Shown: positions 5,746 through 64,000 of the stretch, in pieces
Layout: each line of letters begins with the position of its first letter
How positions within the stretch are numbered: position 1 is the stretch's first letter
The notes under the pieces: model-generated
Told to the model about the DNA's origin: nothing
The model's database searches: none
The model's input: only the letters and a program-made list of their open reading frames with translations
Position numbers and translations under genes: made by a program
NCBI GenBank assembly: GCA_904386005.1
Contig: CAJFKR010000001.1
Coordinates: 139,525 to 203,524 of the forward strand
Length of the DNA: 64,000 bases
Direction: 5' to 3'
Source of the DNA: Candidatus Flemingiibacterium merdigallinarum
GTDB lineage: Bacteria; Bacillota; Clostridia; Oscillospirales; CAG-272

Positions 5746-5896
5746 GTGCAAAGCCGCTTGAATATTGAATCAAACCGAGCGTTACAGCAGCGTCAGCTCC
5801 TGCCGAAGCGTCAGCTTCTGCCGCGCGTCAAATATTGCCGCACGTCAATTCAGCCGAAGCGTCAGCTCCTGCCGCAGCGTCAAATCTTGCCGCGCG

Positions 5897-7213
5897 TCAG
5901 ATCTTGTTGCCGCCTGAACGGTCGTATCCGCCGCTGATCTGCGGATAGTAGGTGCCGCGGTACCACTCGGGCGGGGACGCGAAGGTCATTTTGATTATCG
6001 TCACGCCGAGCGGGTCGGGCGCGGTTTTCGGCAGATTCTTCATTAATATGCGCTGACCCTTGTATTCGAAATCGATCGGCGTGCCGTCAATGAGAGTCAC
6101 GCTCTCGGGCGCGCTCATGTAGCCGCCGAAGCCCATCTCGCCGTAGGACGGCCAGATCCAGTTCCAGAGGTAGACTATCTTTCCGTCCGCGCTCTGCGTC
6201 GTCGCGCAGACGCCGTTGCCGCCGGCGCGCATGAAGCCCTTCGGACGGCGCACCGGATATACCGCCTCGCCGTTGCGCTCGAGCCACTTGCCGACCTCAT
6301 TCAGCGGCTTTACCGCGTCGCTCGGCACGCTGCCGTCCGGAGCCGGTCCGATGTTGAGTAACAGGTTTCCGCCGCCTGCCGACGCGGTGTTCAGCATCTT
6401 CAAGATGCGCGGCGCGGTGTAGACATAGGGCGTCGCCTGCGCGGCGTCGACATAGCCCCACGAGATGTCGTTGAAGGTCATGCAGGCCTCCCAGTCGTTC
6501 GCCTCAGCGGTGACGTGACCCTCTGGCGTGCCGATGTCCTCAGGCAGGCGCGAGCGGTTGTTGATGATGATATCCGGCTGAAGCTCGCGCAGACGCTGAT
6601 TGCGTTCGAGCGAATCCCAGCCCTCCCAGTTTTCCATAGGGCAGGGTACGTCGTACCAGAGTATGTCGATCTTGCCGTAGTTTGTCAGCAGTTCGACGTT
6701 CAGTGCCTCGATGTAGTCGAGGAAGCGGCGGCGCGCGGCGGTGTCATACGCGCACTTGTAGCCGTCCTCGTGGTGCCAGTCCATAAGCGAGCTGTAGAAG
6801 CCGATGCCAAGCCCGAACTCGCGGCAGGCGCCGACGAACTCGGCGACGATGTCGCGTCCGCAGGCGTTGAACGAGTTGTACGGGTTGACCTTGCTGTTCC
6901 AGAGCGAGAAGCCCTCGTGATGACGCGTCGTCAGCACCATGTACTTCATTCCCGCGGCCTTCGCCTCGGCCGCCCACTCGCGGCAGATGCCCTCGCGCGG
7001 TCTGAACGTGTCGGCGAGACGCGCGTATTCGTCGCGCGGAATGTTCTCGTGCAGCTGCACCCACTCGTTGCGTCCGAGCTGGGAATAGAGTCCGTAGTGG
7101 ATGAACATTCCGAACCGCGCCTCGCGCCACCAAGCCATGCGGCGGTCACGCGTAGCAGCGCACTGCTGCTCGTATTCTGCCTTTGATACTATCTGTGCCA
7201 TTTGTGATATCAT
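5897..7213 (-). CDS. alpha-L-fucosidase, glycoside hydrolase family 29
   Basis: AWWREARFGMFIHYGLYS and TTRHHEGFSLW motifs, at typical GH29 length. The start could instead be the Met at 7201, which has better RBS spacing. Confidence 0.9.
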   Translation of the reverse strand: MISQMAQIVSKAEYEQQCAATRDRRMAWWREARFGMFIHYGLYSQLGRNEWVQLHENIPRDEYARLADTFRPREGICREWAAEAKAAGMKYMVLTTRHHEGFSLWNSKVNPYNSFNACGRDIVAEFVGACREFGLGIGFYSSLMDWHHEDGYKCAYDTAARRRFLDYIEALNVELLTNYGKIDILWYDVPCPMENWEGWDSLERNQRLRELQPDIIINNRSRLPEDIGTPEGHVTAEANDWEACMTFNDISWGYVDAAQATPYVYTAPRILKMLNTASAGGGNLLLNIGPAPDGSVPSDAVKPLNEVGKWLERNGEAVYPVRRPKGFMRAGGNGVCATTQSADGKIVYLWNWIWPSYGEMGFGGYMSAPESVTLIDGTPIDFEYKGQRILMKNLPKTAPDPLGVTIIKMTFASPPEWYRGTYYPQISGGYDRSGGNKI

Positions 7214-8206: not shown

Positions 8207-8480
8207 ATTGCATACCGTCCTTCTTTTGGTATTGTAAGATATGCGAGCTCGTCCGTATTCGGGACAAGTCGCAACGAAAAGGCATACGGACAAAGGTCAT
8301 CCGTATGCCTCTATTATACCATATTTGCCGAGTAATATCAACGCACAATATCTGCCAGCGGTCGGACGTGCCGTCGGCGGTCAGCGGGAACTGCGCCGGA
8401 CATAATGCACGGTCAGCCGGTGGACAGCGTAAACCGCACCGGACATATGCACAGTCAGCCGCCGGTATCCTGCGCGTGAA

Positions 8481-9920: not shown

Positions 9921-10039
9921 GTTTATATTTATCCTTTCATAGTTGTTAGTTGTTTATTTATTAGTTATTAGTTATTAGTTGTTAGTTATCAGTTGTTAGT
10001 TATCAGTTGTTAGGTTGGGGCTGCGGCTGATATTATATT

Positions 10040-12529: not shown

Positions 12530-12560
12530 AATTTAATCATAATCGAAAGGAGCAATTACC

Positions 12561-13457
12561 ATGAAACACAAACTGCGCAAACTTCTCGCGATGATCATGA
12601 CGCTGTGCATGATTATCCCCACACTCGCTACCGGAGCGGCTGCAACCGACACGACTACCGCTCCATTTACCGATATCGCCGGTCACTGGGCGGAGGACAC
12701 AATCACCCGCTGGGCTGATGTAGGTATTGTCAACGGATATCCGGACGGGACATTCAGACCGGATGAATTTATCACACGAGCCGAGCTTGCGAAGATTGTG
12801 ACGCTCGCGTTCGGGCTCGAAACCGAATCTGACGCTCCGCTCGCTGACTGCGACCCTGACGCGTGGTATTATGAATACGTTAGAACCGCAGCTGACTACA
12901 TACCGAAATATCCATACATAGTTGGCTACGAGTCGGTGCTCATTTATCATAATAACACTTCGACTGGAAATTTTCTGCCGGATGAGCCGGTGCTGCGCTA
13001 TCATGCAGCCGACGCGTTTGCGACGCTCGCACTCGAGTATGGCGGCATGACGCTTGAGATTCCCGAGGATGAATACGAGGTTCACGCGGCGATATCGGAA
13101 GTTTTCTTGGACGAGTCGATACAGAGCTTTCCGACTTACTACCACCTGTTCCGGCCGAGCAATCCCACCGACCCGAATCTGATCCGTTTGCAGAATTCAA
13201 TTTATGCGGTCTACAAGCTGGGACTGATGACCGGTACGCCGACCGATGGCGGGTTTTATTTCTTCCCATTTATTGGTCTGTCCCGCGCGGAGGTGCTGAC
13301 TATACTTGACCGTATTCTCACGCCGGAGGAAGTAAGCGAGAATATGAACGGCACCGAAACAGCGGAGGAGAGCGAGCCGGTAGAGACTGAACCAGTAGAG
13401 ACAGAACCGGTAGAGACCGAGCCTGTCGAAACCGAGTTGCCAATTTTGATATTCTAA
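12561..13457 (+). CDS. Secreted SLH-domain protein, paralog A, with EPVET x4 C-terminal repeat
   Basis: Signal peptide MKHKLRKLLAMIMTLCMIIPTLATGAAA. SLH motif FTDIAGHWAEDTITRWADVGIVNGYPDGTFRPDEFITRAELAKIV. AAAGGAG RBS. Confidence 0.75.
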   Translation: MKHKLRKLLAMIMTLCMIIPTLATGAAATDTTTAPFTDIAGHWAEDTITRWADVGIVNGYPDGTFRPDEFITRAELAKIVTLAFGLETESDAPLADCDPDAWYYEYVRTAADYIPKYPYIVGYESVLIYHNNTSTGNFLPDEPVLRYHAADAFATLALEYGGMTLEIPEDEYEVHAAISEVFLDESIQSFPTYYHLFRPSNPTDPNLIRLQNSIYAVYKLGLMTGTPTDGGFYFFPFIGLSRAEVLTILDRILTPEEVSENMNGTETAEESEPVETEPVETEPVETEPVETELPILIF

Positions 13458-13477
13458 TTTCGAAAGGAGCAATTACC

Positions 13478-15058
13478 ATGAAACACAAACTGCGCAAACT
13501 ACTCGCGATGATCATGACGCTGTGCATGATTATCCCCACACTCGTGACCGGAGCGGCTGCTGACGACGCGCCGTTCTCTGATATCGCCGGACACTGGGCA
13601 GAGGACACAATCACCCGCTGGGCTGATGTAGGCATTGTCAACGGTTATCCGGACGGGACGTTCAGACCGGATGAATTCATCACCCGCGCGGAACTTGCGA
13701 AGATTGTGACGCTGGCGTTCGGGCTGACTGAAAAGACTGTGACCGAACTCAATGGAATCGACCCGGACGAATGGTATTACAACTATGTCTTGACTGCGGC
13801 GGATTTTATAACTTTGCAACCGATGTCTTTTCTACCGGAAGAGCTACATTTTTATCGTGTAAATCGAAGCGGCGCCAATGAGTTCTTTCCGAATGAACCT
13901 GCGCTGCGCTATCAGGCTGCCGAAGCTTTTGTACAGCTGAAAATATACGCTGACGGCGGTCTGACAAAAGAGATGCCGGAAACTGAAAATACTCAAACTC
14001 TTACGATTCCACAAAGCGATATCACTGTTGAAGTTCCCAGCGCATTTGAAATATTTTTGGAATTAAGGGAAACATTCAATGATTCCGAAATCGGACCACA
14101 AATAATGATGCTCGGTCCGGGCAGATGGGATACAAACCAGATGCGGAATGTTACATTCATGTGGCTCGCTTATGAACTTGGTATCATGCAAGGCGAAATA
14201 GAAGCGGATGGCAGATATTTTCATCCCAACGATTCGCTGACCCGCGCAGAGGTGTTGACCATACTCGACCGCATTCTCACGCCTGAACAGGCGGCTGCTA
14301 ACATGGCTGCTGCCGAAGCTGCGCTTGATGTGCCTGCGCCCGAGCCTGAGCCCGAACCGGTAGAGCTGCCTATACCCGACGGAACCGTTCCGGAGTCAAT
14401 CGACCTTGCCGACCCGAAATACAACATCACGCTGACCCGTGCGCAGTTCGCCGAGCTGCTCACAGTCGCGTTCGACCTTGACGGCGAAACCTCGCTTGCG
14501 CTCACCGACGTTGACCCGAACAGCGAATATTACAGTTACATCAAGGCGGCGGCTGATTATATCCCGAAATTCACCGGATATGAAATGCGCACCGAGGTTG
14601 ACGCGTATTATCAGGCGCAAAACCAATCTCGATACGACGATTTCCTGCCGGACGAGACTATTCTGCGTATGCACGCGTCGCAGTCGTTTACAGATATATA
14701 TGAGCTTCTGTACGGTGTTGAGTTCCCGATTCCGGATGATGCTTATGAGACAGCAGGTGTGATTTCGGCTTATTATGCAGACCCTTCCATAACATCAGTG
14801 GGAGGATTTCTGAATCCTATGATGCGCCCGGGATTTATTGCTGGTAATGTACTGCAATTCCAAAACGCAATCTACACTGGACATGTTCTCGGCATAATGA
14901 ACGATCGAATCGGCACTGACGGGCTGACCTACTTCCTGCCGTACGACGCGCTGACGCTGTCCGACGCGCTCTATTCGATTTTCAAGCTGCTGCCCTCTGA
15001 CGACGCGGAGGTGTTCGCGTCCGAGCTTGATAGCCTGTCGTTCATGCAGGCTGAATAA
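13478..15058 (+). CDS. Secreted SLH-domain protein, paralog B (two copies of the module found in paralog A)
   Basis: The RBS, signal peptide and first SLH motif are near-identical to those of 12561..13457. A second module begins near ITLTRAQFAELLTVAFDL. Confidence 0.75.
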   Translation: MKHKLRKLLAMIMTLCMIIPTLVTGAAADDAPFSDIAGHWAEDTITRWADVGIVNGYPDGTFRPDEFITRAELAKIVTLAFGLTEKTVTELNGIDPDEWYYNYVLTAADFITLQPMSFLPEELHFYRVNRSGANEFFPNEPALRYQAAEAFVQLKIYADGGLTKEMPETENTQTLTIPQSDITVEVPSAFEIFLELRETFNDSEIGPQIMMLGPGRWDTNQMRNVTFMWLAYELGIMQGEIEADGRYFHPNDSLTRAEVLTILDRILTPEQAAANMAAAEAALDVPAPEPEPEPVELPIPDGTVPESIDLADPKYNITLTRAQFAELLTVAFDLDGETSLALTDVDPNSEYYSYIKAAADYIPKFTGYEMRTEVDAYYQAQNQSRYDDFLPDETILRMHASQSFTDIYELLYGVEFPIPDDAYETAGVISAYYADPSITSVGGFLNPMMRPGFIAGNVLQFQNAIYTGHVLGIMNDRIGTDGLTYFLPYDALTLSDALYSIFKLLPSDDAEVFASELDSLSFMQAE

Positions 15059-19640: not shown

Positions 19641-19734
19641 TTCTAAAAATACATAAAAATCCGTGGGAAAAGCAAATCGATGACCGTCGTATCGATTTAT
19701 CTTTTCATTAAAATCGTATTTTTAGATTTTACCT
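19641..19734. repeat. 94-nt nested-palindrome element, copy A
   Basis: Roughly 85% identical by eye to 48857..48950. Nested inverted repeats tctaaaaatac/gtatttttaga, gggaaaag/cttttc and aaatcgat/atcgattt. Confidence 0.8.
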
Positions 19735-20760: not shown

Positions 20761-20798
20761 CTGGGGGAGGTGCCTTTTGAAAAAGGCACCTCCCCCAG
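20761..20798. other. Perfect 18-bp-arm inverted repeat (terminator-like hairpin without a U-tail)
   Basis: ctgggggaggtgcctttt/aaaaggcacctcccccag. No T-run on either side. Confidence 0.5.
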
Positions 20799-20879: not shown

Positions 20880-21080
20880 TAGAACAACAGAGATGCGCCG
20901 CCTAATGGGACCCTGCTTCCCAACCGGCGGCTTGGTTTCTACGTGGCTGTTTGAAATCGACTTCAGCTTCGCTGATCGCCGCTCCTCGCTCCTGAATTCT
21001 CCTCTATTCTCGCTAATCCTCGCTCCTGAATTCTCCTCTATTCCCGCTAATCCTCGCTCCTGAATCCTCATCCATTCCTG
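20880..21080 (-). repeat. GA-rich (on minus strand) intergenic repeat block: 34-bp tandem repeat x2.8 plus a hairpin module related to those at 28288 and 53688
   Basis: 34-nt units at 20987..21020, 21021..21054 and 21055..21080. The segment cagcgaagctgaagtcga (minus strand) is shared with 28299..28318. Confidence 0.6.
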
Positions 21081-21164
21081 CAATGCGCGGAAGCTGATGC
21101 TGCCCGCCGAGGTATAATTTGCAAATATGTGCGTATTGCACAAAAATAACAGAGATATTTCTGC

Positions 21165-28265: not shown

Positions 28266-28287
28266 AGACACACACCTTTCAAACAAG

Positions 28288-28549
28288 AGTGGTCTCGACT
28301 TCAGCGAAGCTGAAGTCGAGAGAGTGGAGAGTGGAGAGTGGTCTCAAACCGCCGCAGGCGGTTTGAGAGCTGTGGTAGGAAATCGCCGGAGGCGATTTCC
28401 GGAATTGATTATAAGAGAGGAGAGATGAGAGTGGGGAACGGACTCACCGCGGATGGTTTCGAGAGAACGGGCTCCCAAAGGGTGGTTTCGAGAGAGCGGA
28501 CTCACCGCGTGTGGTTTCGAGAGAGTGGACTTCCCACGGGTGTCGGAGC
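28288..28549 (+). repeat. GA-rich modular hairpin array (three long GNRA-like-looped hairpins plus 29-nt tandem units x3.5)
   Basis: Hairpins at 28293..28321, 28342..28368 and 28378..28400. 29-nt units start at 28438, 28467, 28496 and 28525. The 28318..28400 core recurs at 53783..53862. Confidence 0.7.
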
Positions 28550-30351: not shown

Positions 30352-30405
30352 ATCGCGGTCTGTGACCGCGAAGTCACAAAACGCGTGGTTTGAAAAATTT
30401 ATTTT

Positions 30406-32568
30406 TCAAACTTTGCCCTCAAGCTCGGCGATTATCATGTTCTGCCAGTCGCAGTTCAGCGTCACGAAGCGTGCGTTCCAGCCCGACACGCGCACCGACA
30501 GCGCTTGATAATTCTCGGGGTGCGCCTGCGCGTCGCGCAGTATGCTCGCGTCGGCGACGTCCGGCTGCATGAAGAAACCGCCGAGCGTAACAAAGCCGCG
30601 CATCAGTCCGACGATAGCGTCGAGTCCCTCGTCGCCGTCGACGCTGTCGGGCAATAGCTTGATGTCGAGTGCCGCGCCGGTCACTTGCTTTGTGAGGTCG
30701 GCGGCGGCATACGACCGGATAATCGCGGTCGCGCCCTCGCGGTCACTGCCCGGGGTCGGCGAGCAGTTCGGGGCGAGCACCTCATGTGCGCGATGTCCGT
30801 GCGGCGACGCGAGCCGGTTCGGCGCCCACTCGAGCTGACGACCGAACGTGCTGACTCCGCTCGGAAAGCGATACCCGCAATTTGTGCCGAGCCTTTGCTC
30901 CATGTCATGACAGATGTCCGAGAAGTCGGAGAGCAGCTTTGAATAGATCGAGTCGACCTCGGGGTTGTCGTTGCCGAAGTAGCGGTACGCGGTCAGCATA
31001 TGCTGTCGGAGCGGCTCGCTTTCGTCCCAGTCCGCGGCGAGAATATCGAAGAATTCATCGAGCCCCAGCAGCCCCTCGTCGAATACGGCTTTCTTAATCG
31101 CGTACAGGCTGTTCACCGTGTCGGCGAGTCCGCCGATGTGCGGCGAGATGACGTTGTAGACCGGTCCGCCCTCGAAGTAGGAATATCCCCTCTCGATACA
31201 GCCCTGCTCGAACAGCGACACTACCGTGCAAGGGGCGGTCGGACGCCAGACGAGCCTGCCGTCAGGGTCGCGCTCGGTCTCGAAGCGCGCGAGCTGACCG
31301 CGTCCGATTCCCTCGACATATGCCTTGAGGTCGCGGACATACGCGTCGTACAGCGCGTCGAAGTCGGCGAAATCTCGATTCTTGTAGTCGGCGAGCGTCG
31401 TGTGCTGCAAAATCGCGAGCGAGTCGAACGGCGTGTAGATGAAGTAGGTCTTGCCCGGGATCTGCACCTCCCAGCAGCCGTCGTTCGCGAACCTTTTCGC
31501 TTCGCGCTCGTCGTATCCGAATTTGGTCAAGGCGTCGATAATCAGCGGCTCGTTGTACAGCGCGATTATGCCGCCGCCGTAGCGGATAGTGTTCGCGACG
31601 CGGTAGAGAAGCTCGTCGCTCGAGTCGGGCGAGATACGGACGGTTATCGGGAAATCGCTGATACCAAGCTCGTCGATTATGTCGAGGACGAGGTAGGTGA
31701 CATTGCACTCGACCGAGTTGTCGTTCTCGTCGATGCCGCCGAGCAGGATATTCTGATAATGCTGCGCATCGCCACTGCCGTAGTCGCCGCCGCTGACCCA
31801 CTCGCAGCCCTTGATGAAGAAGTGCGCGAGCAGCTCGCGCGCTTCGTCGAGTGTGATTTTGCCGTCGGCGAGGTCGCGCTCGAGATACTCGCCGAGCAGC
31901 ATATCAATCCGTCCGATGCCGGGCCAGTTTCCGCAGAGCCGCACAAACGCGAACGTGAACCACAGGCTCTGCACCGCCTCGCGGAAATTCGACGCCGGCT
32001 CGAACGGCACGCGGCGGAGTATGTCGGCGTTGTCGTGATATCCGCCCGCTTCAAGCGCGTTGATATAGCGGTCGCGCCAGATTAGCATTGAGTCAAGGCA
32101 GCTTTTACAGCTTGCGAGAAACTTAAGCCGTCGGGTCGAATACAGGTCGCTGTTAAATATTATCTCCGACATGGATTTTTCTATTTTGTCGTAAAGACCT
32201 ACGACTCCGTCTCTCAGCACCGACACAAAGTCGAGCGTCAGGTGGCTGACGCTGCCGAACACCGGACGACCGTCGATTGTCGCCGGAACGACGTGCGATA
32301 TCGCAAGTCCGAGTGTCGCCGCGCCCGATATAAGCTCGCCGTCACAGATTCGTATCGGCGCGCTCTCGGCGATACGGCGGATCGCGGCGTTGTATTTTTT
32401 CAGGTCGGACAGCTCCGATATGCCGTCGATATCGTCGAGCGGCACCGACATCACGCGTCGGGTGTCGAGCCCGTAGCGGTGGTCATACAGCGATTCATAC
32501 GCGAAGCGTCGCGTCGCGTCCGAAAGACGCACCGGACGCTTTTCTTTTGATACTGTGAAGAATTCCAT
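30406..32568 (-). CDS. Glycyl-radical enzyme GRE-2, 720 aa
   Basis: C-terminal SVRVSGWNARF with Gly codon at 30481..30483. Thiyl loop DGCWE with Cys codon at 31474..31476. GGGGAG RBS before ATG 32568. Confidence 0.9.
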   Translation of the reverse strand: MEFFTVSKEKRPVRLSDATRRFAYESLYDHRYGLDTRRVMSVPLDDIDGISELSDLKKYNAAIRRIAESAPIRICDGELISGAATLGLAISHVVPATIDGRPVFGSVSHLTLDFVSVLRDGVVGLYDKIEKSMSEIIFNSDLYSTRRLKFLASCKSCLDSMLIWRDRYINALEAGGYHDNADILRRVPFEPASNFREAVQSLWFTFAFVRLCGNWPGIGRIDMLLGEYLERDLADGKITLDEARELLAHFFIKGCEWVSGGDYGSGDAQHYQNILLGGIDENDNSVECNVTYLVLDIIDELGISDFPITVRISPDSSDELLYRVANTIRYGGGIIALYNEPLIIDALTKFGYDEREAKRFANDGCWEVQIPGKTYFIYTPFDSLAILQHTTLADYKNRDFADFDALYDAYVRDLKAYVEGIGRGQLARFETERDPDGRLVWRPTAPCTVVSLFEQGCIERGYSYFEGGPVYNVISPHIGGLADTVNSLYAIKKAVFDEGLLGLDEFFDILAADWDESEPLRQHMLTAYRYFGNDNPEVDSIYSKLLSDFSDICHDMEQRLGTNCGYRFPSGVSTFGRQLEWAPNRLASPHGHRAHEVLAPNCSPTPGSDREGATAIIRSYAAADLTKQVTGAALDIKLLPDSVDGDEGLDAIVGLMRGFVTLGGFFMQPDVADASILRDAQAHPENYQALSVRVSGWNARFVTLNCDWQNMIIAELEGKV

Positions 32569-37193: not shown

Positions 37194-37268
37194 GTTTGTT
37201 TGCCTCCTGTTATTTTGTGATTACAGTATACCACAAAATAAAGTCGGACTGAACAACACAAATTATAA

Positions 37269-37344
37269 TTTGTGTTGACACAAATCATGATTTGTGTTGA
37301 CACAAACGGCGATATGTGTTGACACAAACGGCGATATGTGTTGA
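37269..37344. promoter_or_regulatory. Array of 3.5 near-palindromic 16-bp boxes (TTTGTGTTGACACAAA) phased every 22 bp; putative TetR operator array
   Basis: Boxes at 37269..37284, 37291..37306, 37313..37328, and a partial one at 37337..37344. They lie 76-150 nt upstream of ATG 37193. Confidence 0.6.
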
Positions 37345-37426: not shown

Positions 37427-38962
37427 TTACTGCCCGAACTTGAGCTTCGCGAGACCTCCCTCGGCGGTCTCCTTGTATTGGCGCGAAATGTCGAGTCCGG
37501 TCTCCTTCATCACGTGTATGACCTTGTCGAGCGAAATTTTGCGCGAGTCGACGAGGAAGCTCGCGAGGCTGACCGCGTTTATCGCGCGCATTGCCGCGAC
37601 CGCGTTGCGCTCGATGCAGGGGATCTGCACAAGCCCGCATATCGGGTCGCAGGTCAGACCTAAGTGGTGCTCGATGGCGATTTCGGCGGCGTATTCAATC
37701 TTGTCGAGGTCGAGTCCGAACAGCTCGGCGAGCGACGCCGCGGCCATCGCGCAGGCTGAGCCGATCTCCGCCTGACAGCCGCACTCGCTGCCCGATATCG
37801 ACGCGTTCGTCTTGATGAGGTTGCCGACGACACCGCCCGCCGCGAGCGCGCGCAGTATCTCCATATCGGTATAGTCGCGCTTCTTCTGCTGATAGTATAA
37901 AACCGCCGGCAAAACTCCCGACGAGCCGCAGGTCGGCGCGGTGACTATCGTCTCGGCGCAGGCGTTCTGCTCGCTGACCGCGAACGCGTAAGCGCAGACC
38001 ATGCGGTTCTCGCGCGTCTCGGCACTCTCGTCTATATGCTCGCGGCATAAAAGCTGCTTTGCCTTTTTCTGCACGCCGAGTCCGCCCGGGAGTATGCCCT
38101 CGTCGGCGAGTCCGCGCTCAATGCTCGCTTTCATGCCGCGCCAGATTTCGGAGAGGTAGTCCCAGATGCCGCTGCCCTCGGCGCGCTCGACATACTGCCA
38201 GAGCCGCAGATTGTTCGCGCGGCACTCCTTCGCTATCTTCTCGAACGACGATACCGGATAGACGTCGGGCGGCTCGGGCAGCAGGTATTTGTCGTTCTCG
38301 AATCTTCCTCCGCCGGTGCTGACAACGCGGATGCGGTCAATCTGTGCGCCTTGTCTGAACGCGATCATGTCCATTGTGTTCGGGTGCGGCAGGTCAAGCT
38401 CGGTCGTGTTGAAAATGATATCGCAGCTGACCGGCGCCAATGTGGCTTTGATTACCCGGTCGGTGCCGTGACCGATTCCGGTCTTGGCGAGCGAGCCGTA
38501 GAGTATCACCTTGAAACGGTCGGCGGTCGGGTTCTTCTCGCGGAACATACGCGACGCGCGTTCGGGCGCTATAGTGTGCGAGCTCGAGGGTCCGCGCCCG
38601 ACGAGGTATAGCTCGGTCAGCGATTTCATACCGGTGGGAGAGGGCTCATCTCTGATTTCAGATTGCAGCTCGCTGCCGAAAAAGTAATCGACCGGAACAT
38701 TGAAGATTTTCGCGAGCTTATACACATTCTCGGTTGACGGCAGCGCGAGTCCGGTCTCCCATTTCGAGACGGCGCGGTTGCTGACGCCGAGCCGCTCGCC
38801 GAGCTCTCGCTGTGTGATGCCGCTGCGTCTGCGCAGCGCGGCGAAGGTCTTAGCAAAGGCTGTGTCTTTAGCAAAGGCTGTGTCTTTAGCAAAGGCTGTG
38901 TCTTTAGCAAAGGTTTCGCCTTTAGCAAAGGCTTTGCCTTTGGCAAATTCGTTTTCGTTCAT
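37427..38962 (-). CDS. XRE-type HTH domain fused to single-chain iron-sulfur L-serine dehydratase (beta + alpha domains)
   Basis: HTH ITQRELGERLGVSNRAVSKWETG. Dehydratase motifs GRGPSSSHT and APTCGSSGVLPAVL. N-terminal FAK-type hexapeptide repeats. Confidence 0.85.
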   Translation of the reverse strand: MNENEFAKGKAFAKGETFAKDTAFAKDTAFAKDTAFAKTFAALRRRSGITQRELGERLGVSNRAVSKWETGLALPSTENVYKLAKIFNVPVDYFFGSELQSEIRDEPSPTGMKSLTELYLVGRGPSSSHTIAPERASRMFREKNPTADRFKVILYGSLAKTGIGHGTDRVIKATLAPVSCDIIFNTTELDLPHPNTMDMIAFRQGAQIDRIRVVSTGGGRFENDKYLLPEPPDVYPVSSFEKIAKECRANNLRLWQYVERAEGSGIWDYLSEIWRGMKASIERGLADEGILPGGLGVQKKAKQLLCREHIDESAETRENRMVCAYAFAVSEQNACAETIVTAPTCGSSGVLPAVLYYQQKKRDYTDMEILRALAAGGVVGNLIKTNASISGSECGCQAEIGSACAMAAASLAELFGLDLDKIEYAAEIAIEHHLGLTCDPICGLVQIPCIERNAVAAMRAINAVSLASFLVDSRKISLDKVIHVMKETGLDISRQYKETAEGGLAKLKFGQ

Positions 38963-48856: not shown

Positions 48857-48950
48857 TTCTAAAAATACATAAAAATTCGTGGGAAAAGTAAATCGATGCC
48901 TATGGTATCGATTTATCTTTTCCTTCAGATCGTATTTTTAGAGGTTACCT
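48857..48950. repeat. 94-nt nested-palindrome element, copy B (immediately 5' of the fucI RBS)
   Basis: Roughly 85% identical by eye to 19641..19734. The palindrome arms extend to about 48850..48951. Confidence 0.8.
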
Positions 48951-49264: not shown

Positions 49265-50236
49265 ATGAAGCATTGGGCAATCGGCGTGCTGCTTGTATTT
49301 ATATGCTGTCTATCCATATCCTGCGCGGATATAGCCGACGACGGCAATTTGAACACGCCGTCGCCGCGAATCGCGTGGCTTGATAGGATTGTCAGAATTG
49401 AACTCGGCGATGACGCTGACCGCATTGTGTCGTCCGACGGCGAGACTATGTATACGTCCGATGGCGAGCTGCTCGGACTCACCGCCGCCGACGGCTGTGT
49501 ATACTTCCTCGAGCGAGAGGCGAACGGCGGTTCGGCATTGAGCCGCGACGTGACTATAGGCAGAATCGACGCGGACGGTACCGTACACAATCTGACAAGC
49601 GAGCTGTTTTCTGACAGTGAAATACACAACGAGCTCGGATTCATACGCATACTTGACGGCAAAATCTTCATCTCGGGCGCGTCGGCATACGGCGACGCGT
49701 ATCTCTGCGACCCCGAAACCGGAAATGTCAGCTTACGAAATATGCCGGCGACGAACGCGCTCGACAGCGAGAATATCTACTACACCGACGGCGGGTACGA
49801 GATATACCGTCTGACCGCCGACAATTTCGGGGGTGAAGCGGAAATTTACTACGACGGCAGTGACTTTGTCGGCTGGGAGGACGCGGAATATTATGTCGGC
49901 GTCGGAATCGAACAATTATGCGTTGGCGGCGGCAGATTGTACTTTACAGTATCGGCATCTGACGGGTATCGGATATATTCATACGACGGCGAGCTGTCGC
50001 TTCTGCACACAAACGAAAATCCGGTGCGTCAGCTGCAATATTACGGCGGTGAGCTGTATTATTCGGACGAAAACGGAATCTGGCGGCTTTCGGACGAGCC
50101 GGAGCGGATATGCGGGCTCTGTGCGCGCGGGGGCGAGTCGGGTCGGCTGCAAATGTTCGCCTGCGATTTTGTGATACACTCGGGTCGGCTTTACTATGAT
50201 ATCGACGATTTGACAGTATACGAGGAGCTTGGATAA
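49265..50236 (+). CDS. Hypothetical lipoprotein, beta-propeller-like (DUF5050-like YY repeats)
   Basis: Lipobox VFICCLSISCAD. Repeated ...YY.D....I.R... strands. Confidence 0.6.
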   Translation: MKHWAIGVLLVFICCLSISCADIADDGNLNTPSPRIAWLDRIVRIELGDDADRIVSSDGETMYTSDGELLGLTAADGCVYFLEREANGGSALSRDVTIGRIDADGTVHNLTSELFSDSEIHNELGFIRILDGKIFISGASAYGDAYLCDPETGNVSLRNMPATNALDSENIYYTDGGYEIYRLTADNFGGEAEIYYDGSDFVGWEDAEYYVGVGIEQLCVGGGRLYFTVSASDGYRIYSYDGELSLLHTNENPVRQLQYYGGELYYSDENGIWRLSDEPERICGLCARGGESGRLQMFACDFVIHSGRLYYDIDDLTVYEELG

Positions 50237-50251
50237 CAGGGAAGTGGTGAC

Positions 50252-50704
50252 GTGAAAAGGTCGCTGTATATATACGCGGGGATTTTGATACTGCACGCGA
50301 TGAATATGTGCGTCAATTTCTATATTGTCTGGCAGTTGAATATACGCAAGTCGTACGACCCGCCGGAGGGGTGGTTCGAGAGGGCTGACCGGCGAATGTT
50401 CATCGCATCGGCACTGGTATTGACGGTGACGGCAATATATCTGCTGGTGATGTGCCGAAGCGAGCGGTGGCTATGTCTATATCCGGCGGCGCTGACGTTC
50501 GTGAGCGGCGTTTCACTTATATCCGCGCGGTTTGAGTGGTCGACGCCGCTGCAACTGCTGATTGATTTTATAGGCGCGCTGCCGGTGGGGGCGCTCGGGT
50601 TCATCGACCGCGGGCACGAGTACGAGCTGTCACTGGTGTACTATGCTGTGCTGACGTTGCTGGTGGTGTGCGTGATGTTGGTTCGGAGACGGGGGCGGGA
50701 ATGA
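50252..50704 (+). CDS. Hypothetical membrane protein (4 TM)
   Basis: GTG start and four hydrophobic segments. No family recognised. Confidence 0.45.
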   Translation: MKRSLYIYAGILILHAMNMCVNFYIVWQLNIRKSYDPPEGWFERADRRMFIASALVLTVTAIYLLVMCRSERWLCLYPAALTFVSGVSLISARFEWSTPLQLLIDFIGALPVGALGFIDRGHEYELSLVYYAVLTLLVVCVMLVRRRGRE

Positions 50705-50737
50705 ACAGCCAGCTTTTATTTTAGGAGGTGATACTGT

Positions 50738-51532
50738 ATGAAAAAATTGGCTGTTTGTGCAGGTCTTATCACTGTGTTATACCTTATGCAAAGCTGTGCG
50801 GGCAATCAGGTCGAAAGCTCAGCGACTGAAATGGTGAATACTACGCCGGTCTCACCGTCCGACGCGTATTCAACCTCTCCGGCTGAAAGCAGCATAGACG
50901 AAACAACACAAACCGCGTCAGTATCAACGCCGGTTGATTATTCGAATACACAAACCTTTGACAGTATACGGGAAATGAAATTATCAATAGAAGGTACATC
51001 AACTGACTTATCTCTTACCGAAAATACCGATATTAATTCCCTGATTTGGCGCGAGCTCACCGGTCTTGACAGTGAGTATTCGGAGGACTTTGTAGAATGG
51101 TCAGGCGGCGGCAGTTATTTCATCTATTATACAAATGGAGAATATGTGACAGCCTTTATGCCGTTTTCGACTGAAGCGGAGCTGTCGGACGCAATGAATA
51201 GTTGGCTTTCAGTCGACGGAACATATGAAAGCCTTACTGCAAACGAGCGGATATCGGATATAGTCAAAAACGATATTGACACCGAGCTCGGCACGATGTA
51301 TGAATGTACATATAATACTGACAAGGTCGAGGGACTGAAAACCCGATATCACGAATATACCGATGAGGGCGGGAGAACCTACATCCTTTCGCAATCGTTT
51401 ATGTCAGACGGCAGTCTGTCAAGCAACGCGTTGTTTGTGTTTGATGGCGAAGCGTCGTTTATGTGCAGCGGAAATGACCCGAGCTTTACGATGAACTCGG
51501 CACTTAGTCTGATATCGGCTGCAATTGAATGA
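50738..51532 (+). CDS. Hypothetical lipoprotein
   Basis: Lipobox VLYLMQSCAG. TAGGAGG RBS. Confidence 0.6.
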   Translation: MKKLAVCAGLITVLYLMQSCAGNQVESSATEMVNTTPVSPSDAYSTSPAESSIDETTQTASVSTPVDYSNTQTFDSIREMKLSIEGTSTDLSLTENTDINSLIWRELTGLDSEYSEDFVEWSGGGSYFIYYTNGEYVTAFMPFSTEAELSDAMNSWLSVDGTYESLTANERISDIVKNDIDTELGTMYECTYNTDKVEGLKTRYHEYTDEGGRTYILSQSFMSDGSLSSNALFVFDGEASFMCSGNDPSFTMNSALSLISAAIE

Positions 51533-51540
51533 ATAATCTC

Positions 51541-51574
51541 ATCTCCGGCAGCTTCGCTGCCGGAGATTTTTTTC
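51541..51574 (+). terminator. Rho-independent terminator
   Basis: 11-bp stem atctccggcag/ctgccggagat followed by T7. Confidence 0.75.
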
Positions 51575-51701
51575 ATTTTTTTTGTCTTTTTCCCCTTGCC
51601 AAACCCCGCGCTTTGCGGTATAATATTCACAAAGCAATATGATTTGTCCTGCTAAAACACAGGATATATCTGCCAAAATCAGTCAGAAAGGATAATTGCC
51701 A

Positions 51702-53687
51702 ATGTCACAAGCCCTGCTTGACTATGTCCTCGCCGGTGAGCATCACGCGTTCCGCCGAGACGCCGCCGACGCGCTCGGAATCGACAATCTCGCCGAATAC
51801 TACCGCGCCGCCGGACTTACGCCCGAGGAGCGCATGGCGGACCGCTTCGAGCGGCTCTGCCGTGCCGAAACACCGCGTATACTTCCGGACGAAAAAATCT
51901 GCTATGTCCGCACGATAAAAAATATCCCCGACTGCTTCACGCCCGACGAGTGGGACGAGATACGAAAAGGTCACTTCATCCACGAGATCGGCTATATCTC
52001 GAACCTCTCGCCCGACTACGCGAAGGCAATCTCGCGCGGCCTCGTTGCACTGCGCGAAGAAGCCGACGAATACGGACGGCGCGCTATCGACAACATCATC
52101 GACCTCGCCGACCGCTACCGCGACGAGGCTTTGCGTATCGGCCGCGGCGACATCGCCGCGACGCTCGAGCGCGTGCCGCGCTACGGCGCGACGAATCTGC
52201 GCGAGGCGTTGCAGTTCTTCCGGATAATCCACTTCTCGCTCTGGCTCGAGGGCAACTACCACGTCACGACCGGACGCTTTGACAAATACATCTACCCCTA
52301 CTTCAAAGCCGACATGGACAAGGGAATATATACGCGCGAGACCGCGCTCGAGCTCATCGAGGACTTCTTCATCTCGTTCAACAAGGACAGCGACCTCTAC
52401 CCCGGAGTTCAGCAGGGCGACAACGGTCAGTCCATGGTGCTCGGCGGCCGCGACAAAAACGGGCGCGAATGGTTTTCCGAGCTGTCCGAGCTCTGCCTTG
52501 AGGCGAGCCGGAATCTCGGGCTGATCGACCCGAAGATAAACCTGCGCGTGTCGAAGTCGACTCCGATCGATGAATACATAAAGGGCACCGAGCTCACCCG
52601 CGCCGGACTCGGCTTCCCGCAGTATTCGAACGACGACGTCGTAATCGACGGGCTTGTCTCGCTCGGATATTCGCCCGAGGACGCGGCGAACTATGTCGTC
52701 GCCGCCTGCTGGGAGTTTATAATCCCGGGCTGCGCGTTTGATGTCGTGAATATCGGCGCGCTGTCATTCCCTAAGGTTATCGACACTGTGCTTCACACGA
52801 GCTTTTCGGGCTGCAATGACTTTGACGAGCTGCTGGGGAAAGTGCGCGACGAAATCAACGCCGAATGCGACTCGATAACCTCGAAGATTCACGATTTGTG
52901 GTTTGTGCCGTCGCCGTTCATGTCGGTCATGCTCGACGATATCAAGTACCGCAATTTCGGCATACACGGCACCGGCATCGCGACCGCCGCCGACTCGCTC
53001 GCGGCGATTCGAAAATATGTCTATGACGATAAATCCATAACTCCAACCGAGCTTATCGCCGCGGTCGACGACAACTTCGAGCACACTCCCGAGCTGTTGC
53101 ACAAGCTGCGCTATGACGCGCCGAAGATGGGACGTGACGACGACTATGTCGACGGTATCGCTACGTCGCTCGAGGATATGTTCGCCGACTCGCTCGCCGG
53201 CCGCCGGAACTGTGAGGGCGGAATCTATCGCGCCGGAACCGGCTCGGCTATGTACTACCTCTGGCACGCCGCCGAAATCGGCGCGTCGCCCGACGGCAGA
53301 CGCCGCGGCGAGCCGTTCGGCACGAACTTCTCGCCGAGCCTGTTTGCCGATACTGACGGTCCGGTGTCGGTCATAAAGTCGTTCACAAAGCAGCATCTCG
53401 GCAGGGTGATAAACGGAGGTCCGCTGACGCTCGAGTTCCACAACAGCGTATTCCGCGGCGACGACAGCCTTGAAAAAGTCGCGGCTATAGTCAAGTATTT
53501 TATCGACCGCGGCGGTCATCAATTGCAGCTGAACTCGGTCAATCTCGAGACGATGAAGGACGCGAAGCTGCACCCCGACAAGTACCGCCGTCTGGTCGTG
53601 CGGATCTGGGGCTGGAGCGCGTACTTTGTCGAGCTCGACCCCGAGTATCAGGATCATGTTATCGCGAGACAGGAATACAGCATTTAG
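51702..53687 (+). CDS. Glycyl-radical enzyme GRE-3, 661 aa (shortest of the three)
   Basis: C-terminal VVRIWGWSAYF with Gly codon at 53610..53612. Thiyl loop AACWE with Cys codon at 52707..52709. GAAAGGA RBS before ATG 51702. Confidence 0.9.
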   Translation: MSQALLDYVLAGEHHAFRRDAADALGIDNLAEYYRAAGLTPEERMADRFERLCRAETPRILPDEKICYVRTIKNIPDCFTPDEWDEIRKGHFIHEIGYISNLSPDYAKAISRGLVALREEADEYGRRAIDNIIDLADRYRDEALRIGRGDIAATLERVPRYGATNLREALQFFRIIHFSLWLEGNYHVTTGRFDKYIYPYFKADMDKGIYTRETALELIEDFFISFNKDSDLYPGVQQGDNGQSMVLGGRDKNGREWFSELSELCLEASRNLGLIDPKINLRVSKSTPIDEYIKGTELTRAGLGFPQYSNDDVVIDGLVSLGYSPEDAANYVVAACWEFIIPGCAFDVVNIGALSFPKVIDTVLHTSFSGCNDFDELLGKVRDEINAECDSITSKIHDLWFVPSPFMSVMLDDIKYRNFGIHGTGIATAADSLAAIRKYVYDDKSITPTELIAAVDDNFEHTPELLHKLRYDAPKMGRDDDYVDGIATSLEDMFADSLAGRRNCEGGIYRAGTGSAMYYLWHAAEIGASPDGRRRGEPFGTNFSPSLFADTDGPVSVIKSFTKQHLGRVINGGPLTLEFHNSVFRGDDSLEKVAAIVKYFIDRGGHQLQLNSVNLETMKDAKLHPDKYRRLVVRIWGWSAYFVELDPEYQDHVIARQEYSI

Positions 53688-53912
53688 TGAGGAGTTAGGA
53701 GTTAGGAGTGAGGAGTTTCGGTAGAAATTCGCCGAAGGCGAATTTCTGAAACAGAGTGGACTCAAATTCGCGAAGCGAATCCGAGAGAGTGGAGAGTGTG
53801 TGGTCTCAAACCGCCGAAGGCGGTTTGAGAGCTGTGGAAGCAATTCGCCGGCGGCGAATTGCAATTGTTGGAAATTAGAATCCGGCGGATTTGGAAATGA
53901 GTGGTCTCACCA
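53688..53912 (+). repeat. GA-rich modular hairpin array between GRE-3 and AE-3
   Basis: AGGAG x4 run at 53689..53715. Hairpins at 53723..53747, 53761..53787, 53804..53830, 53840..53862 and 53879..53891. The core is shared with 28318..28400. Confidence 0.7.
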
Positions 53913-53935
53913 CACGATTATGAATTATCCCGGCT

Positions 53936-54877
53936 TTGCCGGTTTTGGTGCGAATGAACGATATATTTGATACAGCTGATGGAATTGAAAAATCTGGTCG
54001 GGCTGACGGATTTGATGGAATTGACAAATCTGATAAATTTGATAAAGGCGAAGATACACACGAGCCGCGCGGCATCGTCTTTGACATAAAGGAGTTCGCG
54101 GTGCATGACGGGCCGGGTGTGCGGACGACGGTGTTCATGAAAGGCTGTCCGCTTTCCTGCCGCTGGTGTCACAATCCCGAGGGCTTGTCGCCGCGCCCCG
54201 AGCTGATGGTCAAGACCGCGCGCTGCCGTCACTGCGGCTTGTGTACGCGTCCCTGCGAACACGAGGACTGCAAGCCGTACGGTCGCTGTCTGCATATCTG
54301 TCCGGAGGGACTGATATCGGTCGTCGGCAAAAGCTGGACGCCCGACGAGCTGGCGGCGCGGATACTTCGAGACTATGATTTTCTGAAATCGAGCGGCGGC
54401 GTGACGATCTCGGGCGGCGAGCCGACGATGCAATCCGAGTTCGTGTCAGAGCTGCTGCGCCGGCTGCATGGGCTGCACCGCGCGGTCGAGACCTGCGGAT
54501 ATTGCAGCGGCGAGCGGTTCACGTCGGTGATAAATGAGTGCGATTATGTGATAATGGACATAAAGCTCGCCGACCCCGAAGCGCACAAGGTGTGGTGCGG
54601 CGTCGACAATGCCCCGATCCTCGAAAATTTCGAGCGGTTAAGGTCGAGCGGGCGCGAGTATCTCGTCCGAGTGCCGCTGATACCCGACGTCACCGACACG
54701 CGCGAGAATCTCGCCGCGATATCCGAAATCGTCGGCGACAGCAGGGTCGAGCTGCTCGGCTACAACAATATGGCGGGCGCGAAGTATGCCGGAGTCGGGC
54801 GGGTTTACACGCTTCCTGACAAGAAGAACCGCGAGATCGACCTTGCGCTGTTCAAGCACGCGGTATTGAGCCGGTAA
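53936..54877 (+). CDS. Glycyl-radical enzyme activase AE-3 (start uncertain: TTG 53936 or ATG 53954)
   Basis: FDIKEFAVHDGPGVRTTVFMKGCPLSCRWCHNPE, plus CRHCGLCTRPC and CLHICP. Low-complexity N-terminal extension. Confidence 0.88.
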   Translation: MPVLVRMNDIFDTADGIEKSGRADGFDGIDKSDKFDKGEDTHEPRGIVFDIKEFAVHDGPGVRTTVFMKGCPLSCRWCHNPEGLSPRPELMVKTARCRHCGLCTRPCEHEDCKPYGRCLHICPEGLISVVGKSWTPDELAARILRDYDFLKSSGGVTISGGEPTMQSEFVSELLRRLHGLHRAVETCGYCSGERFTSVINECDYVIMDIKLADPEAHKVWCGVDNAPILENFERLRSSGREYLVRVPLIPDVTDTRENLAAISEIVGDSRVELLGYNNMAGAKYAGVGRVYTLPDKKNREIDLALFKHAVLSR

Positions 54878-63448: not shown

Positions 63449-64000
63449 TCAGTTCGCCGGATTATAATAATACCAGACCGACAAAATCCTGTCGGAATCG
63501 GCTCTCGCGCGGTCGGCGACCGCGAAGCCCGGAACCCAGACGATTCCCTCCGAGTCGCAAAAGACCGGCAGTCGTTCGCGCTCGTCACGGCTCAACTTAT
63601 GGTCATTGTAGAGCTTTTTGAGCCGTCGGGTCATTCCGCCAAAGACATACGCGTCTCCGGCGCGCCTTGAGCGTACAAATAATATATGATTTATTTTATC
63701 AGAATTTAATTCTGCGTGTATTGATAATTTGTAAATATTTTTGAGTCTTTCGTTATATTTTTCAAATTCGCCGCATTTTTTCGAATTTGGCAATAAAATC
63801 GCCGCAAAATCGGGCGACGCGAATTGATTTATGCCAACGGCGAGCGGATATTCAAACTCAATCCGCTGCTGTGGCGCGGCATTATTGGCATAAGCCAAAT
63901 TGGCATAAGCCGAATTGGCAGAAGCTGAATTGGTAGAAGCCGAATCAATAAAAGTCAATTTTCCGCGCGAGATTTCAGCGCGAATTTTCCCGGGCAGCGA
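63449..64000 (-). CDS. tilS: tRNA(Ile)-lysidine synthetase, C-terminal part; the 5' end lies outside the window
   Basis: The frame stays open to the window edge (SLPGKIRAEISRGKLTF...). C-terminal domain RRAGDAYVFGGMTRRLKKLYNDHKLSRDERERLPVFCDSEGIVWVPGF. Sits in tilS-hpt-ftsH synteny. Confidence 0.8.
   Translation of the reverse strand, partial: SLPGKIRAEISRGKLTFIDSASTNSASANSAYANLAYANNAAPQQRIEFEYPLAVGINQFASPDFAAILLPNSKKCGEFEKYNERLKNIYKLSIHAELNSDKINHILFVRSRRAGDAYVFGGMTRRLKKLYNDHKLSRDERERLPVFCDSEGIVWVPGFAVADRARADSDRILSVWYYYNPAN

Follow-up and report, generated by a model that had tools for sequence, protein, structure and literature searches.

The window analysed here, a stretch of 64,000 nucleotides (nt) from Candidatus Flemingiibacterium merdigallinarum, carries three pairs of genes encoding a glycyl-radical enzyme (GRE) and its activase (AE), and the third pair raises the question of why its two genes are separated by a long spacer of hairpins and AGGAG repeats. 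This GRE-3/AE-3 spacer occupies positions 53688-53935 (248 nt), or 266 nt (to 53953) when AE-3 is taken to start at the ATG at 53954. An earlier interpretation made without database searches, referred to here as the sequence-only reading, had proposed an intra-operon RNA element that sets the ratio of abundant GRE to scarce activase, and had named a genome-wide intergenic repeat as the alternative. The present analysis favors the repeat. The identity of the spacer DNA as a dispersed repeat is close to certain, and it is highly probable that the spacer, in both identity and origin, is pieced together from modules of a palindromic repeat that is modular, present in many copies, and specific to this lineage, and that was not built for this operon. 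The flanking genes are the following.

51702..53687, plus strand: GRE-3, a glycyl-radical enzyme of 661 aa with PFL-like and Gly_radical Pfam matches, called from the ATG at 51702.
53954..54877, plus strand: AE-3, a radical-SAM activase of 307 aa (Pfam), called from the ATG at 53954 in the public assemblies.

The spacer is divided into hairpins of two types (A and B) and the purine-rich linkers that join them, in the order given below.

53688..53717, plus strand: run of 4.6 tandem copies of the 7-nt unit AGGAGTT (TRF; motif positions).
53721..53747, plus strand: type-B hairpin B1, a GTAG head followed by AGAAATTCGCC-GAA-GGCGAATTTCT (folding).
53754..53786, plus strand: type-A hairpin A1, the head GAGTGG followed by ACTC-AAATTCGC-GAA-GCGAATCC-GAGA (folding, alignment).
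53782..53803, plus strand: constant purine-rich junction GAGAGAGTGGAGAGTGTGTGG, with 7-mer heads of the GAGAGTG type, identical in a second cluster of the window (the 28k cluster, below) and at dozens of loci.
53800..53831, plus strand: type-A hairpin A2, GTGG followed by TCTC-AAACCGCC-GAA-GGCGGTTT-GAGA and a G (folding).
53832..53862, plus strand: GCTGTGG-AAG linker and type-B hairpin B2 (GCAATTCGCC-GGC-GGCGAATTGC), with which the array ends (folding; module order).
53863..53929, plus strand: tail beginning with AATTG, with a weak aatcc-GGC-ggatt and an orphan head GAGTGGTCTC (53899-53908) that has no hairpin.
53930..53953, plus strand: CCGGC-TTT-GCCGG hairpin (53930-53942; -8.0 kcal/mol), followed by TTTTGGTG.

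The entire spacer folds better than its shuffles on both strands (z = -4.6 on the plus strand and -8.6 on the minus strand). The four AGGAG motifs that the sequence-only reading placed just after the GRE-3 stop are present, starting at 53690, 53697, 53704, and 53711, and its five hairpins are reduced to three perfect, strong ones and a moderate one. The strong hairpins are B1 (stem-loop 53723-53747; 11 bp, GAA loop, -15.7 kcal/mol), A2 (53804-53830; 12 bp, GAA loop, -21.4 kcal/mol), and B2 (53840-53862; 10-11 bp, -16.0 kcal/mol), and the moderate one is A1 (53761-53785; an 11-bp stem interrupted by two A.C mismatches; plus strand -8.5 kcal/mol, minus strand -13.2). The fifth, aatcc-GGC-ggatt (53878-53890; -3.6 kcal/mol), is no better than shuffles (z = -0.96), and the CCGGC-TTT-GCCGG element, which had been missed, must be added to the inventory. 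This element lies 12 nt before the AE-3 ATG, has a stem top of a type found in the repeat family, and is kept in the orthologous spacers of L057, L058, and L059 described below. Its match to a terminator-like pattern is at chance level (one found, 0.7 expected); no intrinsic terminator or promoter-like site beyond chance is found in or near the spacer, and the sequence after the main hairpins is GAGAG or CTG instead of the T run of a Rho-independent terminator. The description of the spacer as filled with stop codons points to nothing unusual, given that the three frames of the 266 nt contain 10 stops and about 12 are expected by chance. The other two GRE/AE spacers have the lengths that had been given for them, 43 nt for GRE-1/AE-1 and about 55-105 nt for GRE-2/AE-2. 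The gtgac...gtcac hairpin of the latter (30361-30376), which had been counted as a hairpin of the same sort, does exist, but lacks the head and stem base of the family.

These modules belong to a family of repeats that was traced by scanning a 19-mer from the constant junction against metagenome contigs. The scan recovered 38 stretches, which comprise 30 true family copies, on separate contigs of two assemblies, and eight chance matches without hairpins. Two of the 30 loci are orthologues of window regions at approximately 95% identity, so these two assemblies hold a close relative of the source organism. The module order of the copies is (A)AGAGTGG, one to five repeats of TCTC-stem-triloop-stem-GAGA, GCTGTGG-TAG with a B hairpin, and a AATTRATTATAAGAG tail. 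In the type-A hairpin, the head GAGTGG precedes a stem whose base, TCTC/GAGA, is constant and whose top is variable but perfectly complementary, usually closed by a triloop. In the type-B hairpin, the head is G[T/A]AG and the stem reads AAATTCGCC-NNN-GGCGAATTT; this hairpin is found once per array, after the A hairpins. The joints between hairpins are purine-rich 7-mer runs (GAGAGTG, AGGAGTT), with GAGTGG or GAGAGTG heads between the A repeats, where the constant junction is the 14-nt sequence GAGA-GAGTGG-TCTC. The AGGAGTT run recurs in inverted form after a B hairpin at two of the sampled loci (L036 and L029), and is a module of the family rather than a peculiarity of this spacer.

The link between head and hairpin is tight. 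The head GTGGTCTC occurs 122 times in the 288 kb sampled, and in 106 cases a perfect hairpin of 7 bp or more starts exactly at the TCTC, compared with 128 of the 2435 other TCTC sites. The same sample contains 47 distinct stem tops, among which the top of A2, AAACCGCC, ranks second with nine copies, after CGC with 10. The pairing is conserved as the letters change: among 25 distinct 12-bp examples, seven of the 12 stem pairs have changed at both positions and no pair at a single position, with a covariation of 0.643, compared with 0.18 in shuffles and no more than 0.147 in slid controls, although the set was preselected for perfect pairing and only the counts of pair types are informative. Perfect Watson-Crick palindromes dominate the family, and the A and B units, with lengths of 19-35 nt and stems of 7-16 bp, have the dimensions of repetitive extragenic palindromic (REP) sequences. 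Approximately 59% of the loops read GNA on one or other strand, and most loops are GNA, TTC, or TTT; GNA is a motif of very stable DNA mini-hairpins. A "flip-flop" inversion of the loop, considered for complementary loop pairs, was set aside, given that, by eye, the loop sequence tracks the stem type. The constant head and stem base also contain GGTCTC/GAGACC, the recognition site of the type IIS enzymes BsaI and Eco31I, perhaps by coincidence.

All sampled copies are intergenic, with a median distance of 36 nt from the head to the gene end, and the A hairpins of one run share the same orientation, with the polarity A...A and then B. The genes that adjoin them are housekeeping genes unrelated to one another, and include gyrB, an rlmH-like gene, GH35, mgsA, spoIVA, and a comM-like gene. 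A genome-wide intergenic repeat, the second option of the sequence-only reading, is thus borne out by clusters inside and outside the window and by some 30 loci with unrelated neighbors in the close relative. The copies show no preference for a strand: between co-directional genes, taken in the element's own frame, 14 copies are sense and 15 antisense, with a further eight between convergent and two between divergent genes. Whole arrays are paired in inverted orientation at some loci only (L031, L029, and L042). The repeat is therefore dispersed, structured, orientation-neutral, and subject to fast turnover. Short-read contigs of close relatives end inside arrays at two loci (L056, at 4331, and L044, at 7498), and the family thus appears to break the assemblies of this lineage.

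Only a narrow clade of uncultured, Oscillospiraceae-like Clostridia carries the family. A scan of the genome collection with GTGGTCTC-N19-21-GAGAGCTGTGG returned five chance matches without hairpins, in unrelated phyla; the source genome was not among its results, and the scan thus yields no genome-wide count. Two family patterns had no match in viral contigs, which gives no sign of carriage by phages. An Rfam scan of the window at the gathering level detected tRNA only, and the best sub-threshold scores reached at most 19.6 bits against thresholds of at least 34 bits. No earlier description of the family in the Oscillospiraceae or Ruminococcaceae was found in the open-access literature.

In the source genome itself, the sequence was extended to 83 kb using the source scaffold, and the positions referred to as extended coordinates are those of this longer sequence. 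These 83 kb of contiguous genome contain five family clusters, of which three are inside the window: the GRE-3/AE-3 spacer and the two that follow.

28287..28545, plus strand: second cluster (the 28k cluster), A-A-B with a purine-rich tail and 3.7 copies of a 29-nt tandem repeat; it abuts the start of GRE-1.
20950..21090, minus strand: third and more degenerate cluster, a truncated A hairpin (TCAGCGAAGCTGAAGTCGA) with an AGGAG-rich tandem repeat of 34 nt in 2.8 copies.

Over approximately 130 nt, the 28k cluster can be aligned to the spacer; A2 is identical there, and A1 and B2 differ by fully compensated stem changes; the homologue of A1, at 28287-28323, has a different stem (GACTTCAGC/GCTGAAGTC). 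This cluster is in the plus orientation and its flanking genes are on the minus strand, so it is antisense to them and would be transcribed as the complement. The 29-nt tandem repeat that follows the array (28436-28542; GAACGGACTCACCGCGGGTGGTTTCGAGA) has units resembling degenerate half-hairpins of the family, in which an A-type head (GGACTC) is combined with a right arm (GGTTTCGAGAG). The third cluster sits between a terminator-like hairpin and a gene judged to be BlaI-like by eye from its translation, without a Pfam check. The two clusters outside the window are located at approximately 66.9-67.2 kb and 71.4-71.6 kb (extended coordinates), one of them between a gdpP-like gene and rplI. B1 has near-identical copies at 66971-66994 and 67141-67164 (extended coordinates). 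A second repeat (gccgccggttggg.agc.ggg.cccattaggcggcgc) is present in inverted orientation at two sites, window positions 20761-20798 and 20882-20932, and extended coordinates 67324-67374 and 67458-67495. Each of its copies adjoins a terminator-like hairpin of 18-19 bp with the base CTGGGGGAG...CTCCCCCAG, and both sites are near hairpin-array clusters.

The history of the array can be followed in relatives that share the gene order of fucose isomerase, GRE, AE, and a GH36-like gene. Their GRE-3/AE-3 spacers are listed by increasing identity of the GRE to that of the window.

L012, GRE 74% identical (protein): spacer of 1 nt, no element.
L010, GRE 78% identical (protein): spacer of 34 nt, an unrelated palindrome only.
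L009, GRE 90% identical (protein): spacer of 82 nt, a short form with GAGTGG heads and two hairpins, one resembling A and one resembling B.
L057, GRE 94.6% identical (DNA): spacer of 186 nt, allele II.
L059, GRE 95.6% identical (DNA): spacer of 255 nt, allele I.
L058, GRE 96% identical (DNA): spacer of 265 nt, allele I.
Window, reference: spacer of 248-266 nt, allele I.

The family was not found in approximately 22 kb of sequence from each of the relatives at 74-78% GRE identity. Allele II, which is seen in L057 and in part in L056 (97% identical in protein), has one different CCGGC hairpin in place of the AGGAGTT run, B1, and A1, and shares only its 3' part with allele I. L057, L056, and L009 all lack the AGGAGTT run in their orthologous spacers. 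Within allele I, the hairpins differ in their loops, with GAA changed to GCA in A2, and GGC changed to GGA or GCA in B2. From this comparison, the array is a recent and labile occupant of the GRE-3/AE-3 spacer, and its AGGAG run is dispensable. The other clusters have changed in a similar manner. The 28k cluster and its counterpart L044 differ by swaps of whole hairpin tops, with different hairpins and one extra, and the 67k cluster and L037 by swaps of whole tops and the gain or loss of hairpins; the junctions are identical in both comparisons. An argument from strain conservation, which contrasted a spacer 100% identical between strains with their flanks at approximately 98%, was dropped, given that the entire block at about 50000-54800 is identical in those strains.

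Given this, the array would have entered the GRE-3/AE-3 spacer in a recent ancestor. Its growth and remodeling since then have involved duplication, the gain and loss of hairpins, and the replacement of whole hairpin tops. The replacement of entire tops, instead of their gradual decay, suggests gene conversion or template switching between copies, which would likely proceed by way of the 14-nt constant junction. The arrays would persist at the level of the DNA, as selfish or neutral sequences comparable to repeats of the REP type or to the bacterial interspersed mosaic elements (BIMEs). The array is probably co-transcribed with GRE-3 and AE-3, because the GRE and AE genes of relatives nearly abut and neither a terminator nor a promoter is found in the spacer above chance level. 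In such a transcript, the four stable hairpins of the array (-8 to -21 kcal/mol) would probably impede 3' exonucleases or serve as processing sites. Such an action would uncouple the mRNA of AE-3 from that of GRE-3, as a by-product rather than a purpose. A real effect on the GRE:AE ratio, argued by analogy with other operons, may be regarded as possible, if somewhat doubtful.

Several points weigh against this account. The copy number per genome, which for REPs exceeds 100, is here extrapolated rather than counted, from 11 perfect GTGG-headed hairpins in the unbiased 83 kb and 121 in the 288 kb of sampled loci. No mobilizing enzyme emerged from a crude HUH/Y1 regular-expression screen of those 288 kb (approximately 10% of a genome), which returned zero candidates. 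Two of the three window clusters adjoin GRE genes, which may be chance at n = 3; a specific association with GREs was dropped from consideration, given that some 30 loci adjoin unrelated genes. Between the window and the two allele I relatives, every substitution inside a hairpin is located in a loop and none in approximately 90 stem positions, despite flanks that are about 4% diverged, and the unchanged stems could reflect selection on the structure, and not self-correction at the DNA level alone. The proposed effect on the mRNA is an analogy, and mRNA decay of the Firmicutes type (RNase J, RNase Y) differs from that of Escherichia coli, which makes the direction of any such effect uncertain.

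Against these reservations must be set the difficulties of the other explanations, beginning with the dedicated cis-regulatory RNA of the sequence-only reading, which would set the ratio of abundant GRE-3 to scarce AE-3 by blocking exonucleases, terminating part of the transcripts, or trapping ribosomes. The location of the spacer inside an operon, the four stable hairpins, the weak hairpin with a U-run 12 nt before the AE-3 start, and the stems that remain constant while the loops vary in same-allele relatives are all compatible with this role, for which intergenic stem-loops that set stoichiometry provide precedents (PMC5927463, PMC10311766). As the reason for the sequence, it is nevertheless improbable and was not upheld, given that the same modules lie at dozens of unrelated loci in both orientations, are absent or much shorter in the orthologous, syntenic operons, and, in relatives with approximately 95-97% identity, have been replaced over the 5' half (the AGGAG run, B1, and A1) by a different hairpin. 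The other two GRE/AE pairs, moreover, lack the element between enzyme and activase, and no Rfam family matches. The REP-type analogy that accompanied the proposal is apt, and a REP-like side effect on mRNA decay may occur. A different function for the RNA, as a sponge of the CsrA/Rsm kind that titrates protein or ribosomes through the GGA and AGGAG motifs between hairpins, or as an independent small-RNA gene, was also considered, and was rejected as extremely improbable. The spacer does contain 10 GGA and four AGGAG motifs, its linkers are very poor in C (11 of 140 positions), and a weak PrrB/RsmZ match is found at 28337-28448 (13.9 bits, E = 0.67), but this score is far under the gathering threshold of 44 bits, and gathering-level and permissive Rfam scans gave nothing meaningful. 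The spacer and its surroundings lack a promoter-like site, the predominant GNA, TTC, and TTT loops do not present GGA, transcription of about half of the copies would yield the C/U-rich complement, and close relatives lack the AGGAG run.

The remaining explanations accept a repeat and differ in how it is moved. In a true REP system, a domesticated HUH Y1 transposase, the REP-associated tyrosine transposase (RAYT), would spread the hairpins by recognizing, in single-stranded DNA, the stem-loop with its GT[A/G]G head. This is rather unlikely here, even with GTGG or GTAG located directly 5' of palindromes of 7-13 bp, extragenic and tandemly clustered copies, and GNA in so many loops. REPs are defined by a terminal GTAG (GTGG in one family) and are known in head-to-tail clusters (PMC3733652), and group 1 RAYTs occur in Clostridia, but a strong link to abundant repeats is established for RAYT groups 2 and 3 only (PMC5581495). 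The crude screen returned no Y1/HUH candidate in the sampled 288 kb, classical REP families have conserved stems in place of the 47 tops seen here, and the arrays are mostly direct repeats, and neither the alternation of BIMEs nor the inverted doublets of REPINs. A classical miniature inverted-repeat transposable element, derived by deletion from an insertion sequence and moved in trans by its transposase, with terminal inverted repeats and target-site duplications, has even less in its favor and is quite improbable. The composite unit of approximately 130 nt has a conserved module order and well-defined termini (5' AAGAGTGG, 3' ...AATTATAAGAG), the inverted array pairs at three loci would fit, and the AAGAG found at either end might represent a duplicated target site. 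This AAGAG also belongs to the repeating head, however, terminal inverted repeats are absent from single arrays, which contain anywhere from one to five internal hairpins, the filled, short, and empty GRE-3/AE-3 sites show no clean insertion with duplication, and neither family pattern matched viral contigs. A more specific version of the dispersed repeat, which is unlikely but is put forward as a conjecture, is a previously undescribed REP-like system of the Clostridia in which the constant 14-nt junction frames cassette-like, perfectly palindromic tops that are exchanged much faster than the flanks diverge, with a fixed polarity and a B end, and which a dedicated hairpin-specific enzyme (RAYT-like or another single-strand DNA nuclease) would maintain. 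On this conjecture, the arrays could also have been co-opted generally to punctuate mRNA decay or processing at gene boundaries, given the median of 36 nt between head and gene end.

Repeat DNA runs on from the spacer into the 5' end of AE-3, where an in-frame 18-nt tandem repeat (53976-54034; TRF) encodes the N-terminal 30 or so amino acids. This extension is acidic, of the DGIEKS/GRADGF/DGIDKS type. As a consequence of the in-frame repeat, the close homologues of AE-3, at 290-326 aa depending on the number of repeat copies, are longer than the distant ones, at 271-276 aa. No in-frame ATG, GTG, or TTG is present between 53954 and the conserved GIVFDIKEF motif. In the GRE-2/AE-2 spacer (30353-30411, minus strand), an AT-rich hairpin of 11 bp lies over the GRE-2 stop codon (30388-30411), and two mutually exclusive hairpins are found at 30353-30376. 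A strong Shine-Dalgarno sequence (GGAAAGGAGG) at approximately 30316-30307 suggests that AE-2 starts near 30297, and not at the TTG at 30351.

A number of other repeats are present in the window. An imperfect palindrome of approximately 90-100 nt is found at 19641-19726 and 48857-48942, with the arms TCTAAAAATAC...GTATTTTTAGA and a nested AAATCGAT/ATCGATTT. Its two copies are 89.5% identical and lie upstream of two unrelated plus-strand genes, one of which heads the gene block before GRE-3; they could represent a shared operator or another small repeat family. An intergenic array of a 22-nt palindromic unit (ACACAAATCATGATTTGTGTTG, approximately 3.3 copies) at 37254-37344 looks like an array of operator sites. 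A direct repeat of 275 nt, with 88.7% identity between 12543-12817 and 13460-13725, covers the 5' parts of two adjacent plus-strand genes (12561-13457 and 13478-15058) and suggests a duplicated N-terminal domain or leader. Further short tandem repeats, with periods of 7-51 nt, are located at 5790-5903, 8375-8465, 9940-10013, 38850-38947, and 63884-63945, which shows that small repeats abound in this genome.

For the GRE operon, the identification of the spacer as repeat DNA is a caution: the spacer provides no evidence of a purpose-built stoichiometry device, and the repeated AGGAG motifs do not serve as ribosome-binding sites. The family also explains the variable, repeat-encoded N-terminus of the AE-3 gene call, and would explain the contig breaks in the assemblies of this lineage (L056 and L044). 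The natural series of spacers of 1, 34, 82, 186, and 266 nt offers material for relating inserted hairpin arrays to expression within an operon. REP-type repeats are known mainly from the Proteobacteria and a few other phyla, and a family in the Clostridia would extend this range.

Comparison with known systems places the family among modular intergenic repeats, of which the BOX element of the pneumococcus (boxA-boxB(n)-boxC), with modules of 45-59 nt conserved in sequence, is an example from another Firmicute. Both have a fixed module order, a variable internal count, and a stable predicted RNA, but they have no sequence similarity, and the hairpins described here, at 20-30 nt, have stems that vary from copy to copy. 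In the cip-cel operon of Ruminiclostridium cellulolyticum, intergenic stem-loops have been identified experimentally as cleavage signals and stabilizers that set stoichiometry (PMC10311766). They resemble the present array as GC-rich intergenic stem-loops of an operon in the Clostridia, and the same effect may be proposed here by analogy. The cip-cel loops, in contrast, are described as specific to their operon rather than as copies of a genome-wide repeat. In E. coli, the REPs between malE and malF protect the upstream mRNA from 3'-5' exonucleases (PMC5927463), and the BIMEs, like these arrays, are mosaics of hairpin and linker modules, in variable number, between the genes of operons. The REPs of BIMEs alternate in orientation (PMC2817692), whereas the arrays here contain one to five A hairpins as direct repeats in one orientation, instead of the alternating or inverted organization of BIMEs and REPINs.

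The closest known kind is that of the REP-type, GTAG-tagged stem-loop repeats, which are short palindromes tagged at one end by GTAG, sometimes degenerate to GTGG, and found singly, as dimers, or in tandem clusters (PMC3733652). Their presence has been reported in the Proteobacteria, Cyanobacteria, Chloroflexi, and PVC bacteria, in a survey that does not mention the Clostridia, the host group of the present family (PMC3733652). Group 1 RAYTs do occur in the Clostridia (PMC5581495). The family shares with the REPs and the Stenotrophomonas SMAG repeats (Di Nocera et al. 2013, PMC3733652) GC-topped extragenic palindromes of 20-35 nt in many copies, a GT[A/G]G tag at one end, several stem classes per genome, an arrangement as single, head-to-tail, or tandem clusters, and a predicted folding in the mRNA. 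The tag itself is seen as GTGG before the 121 hairpins of the sampled loci, and as GTAG or GAAG in the type-B hairpins. What distinguishes the family from these repeats is its longer head, GAGTGG, its constant TCTC/GAGA base with 47 tops, and its fixed polarity of A...A and then B around a constant junction of 14 nt.

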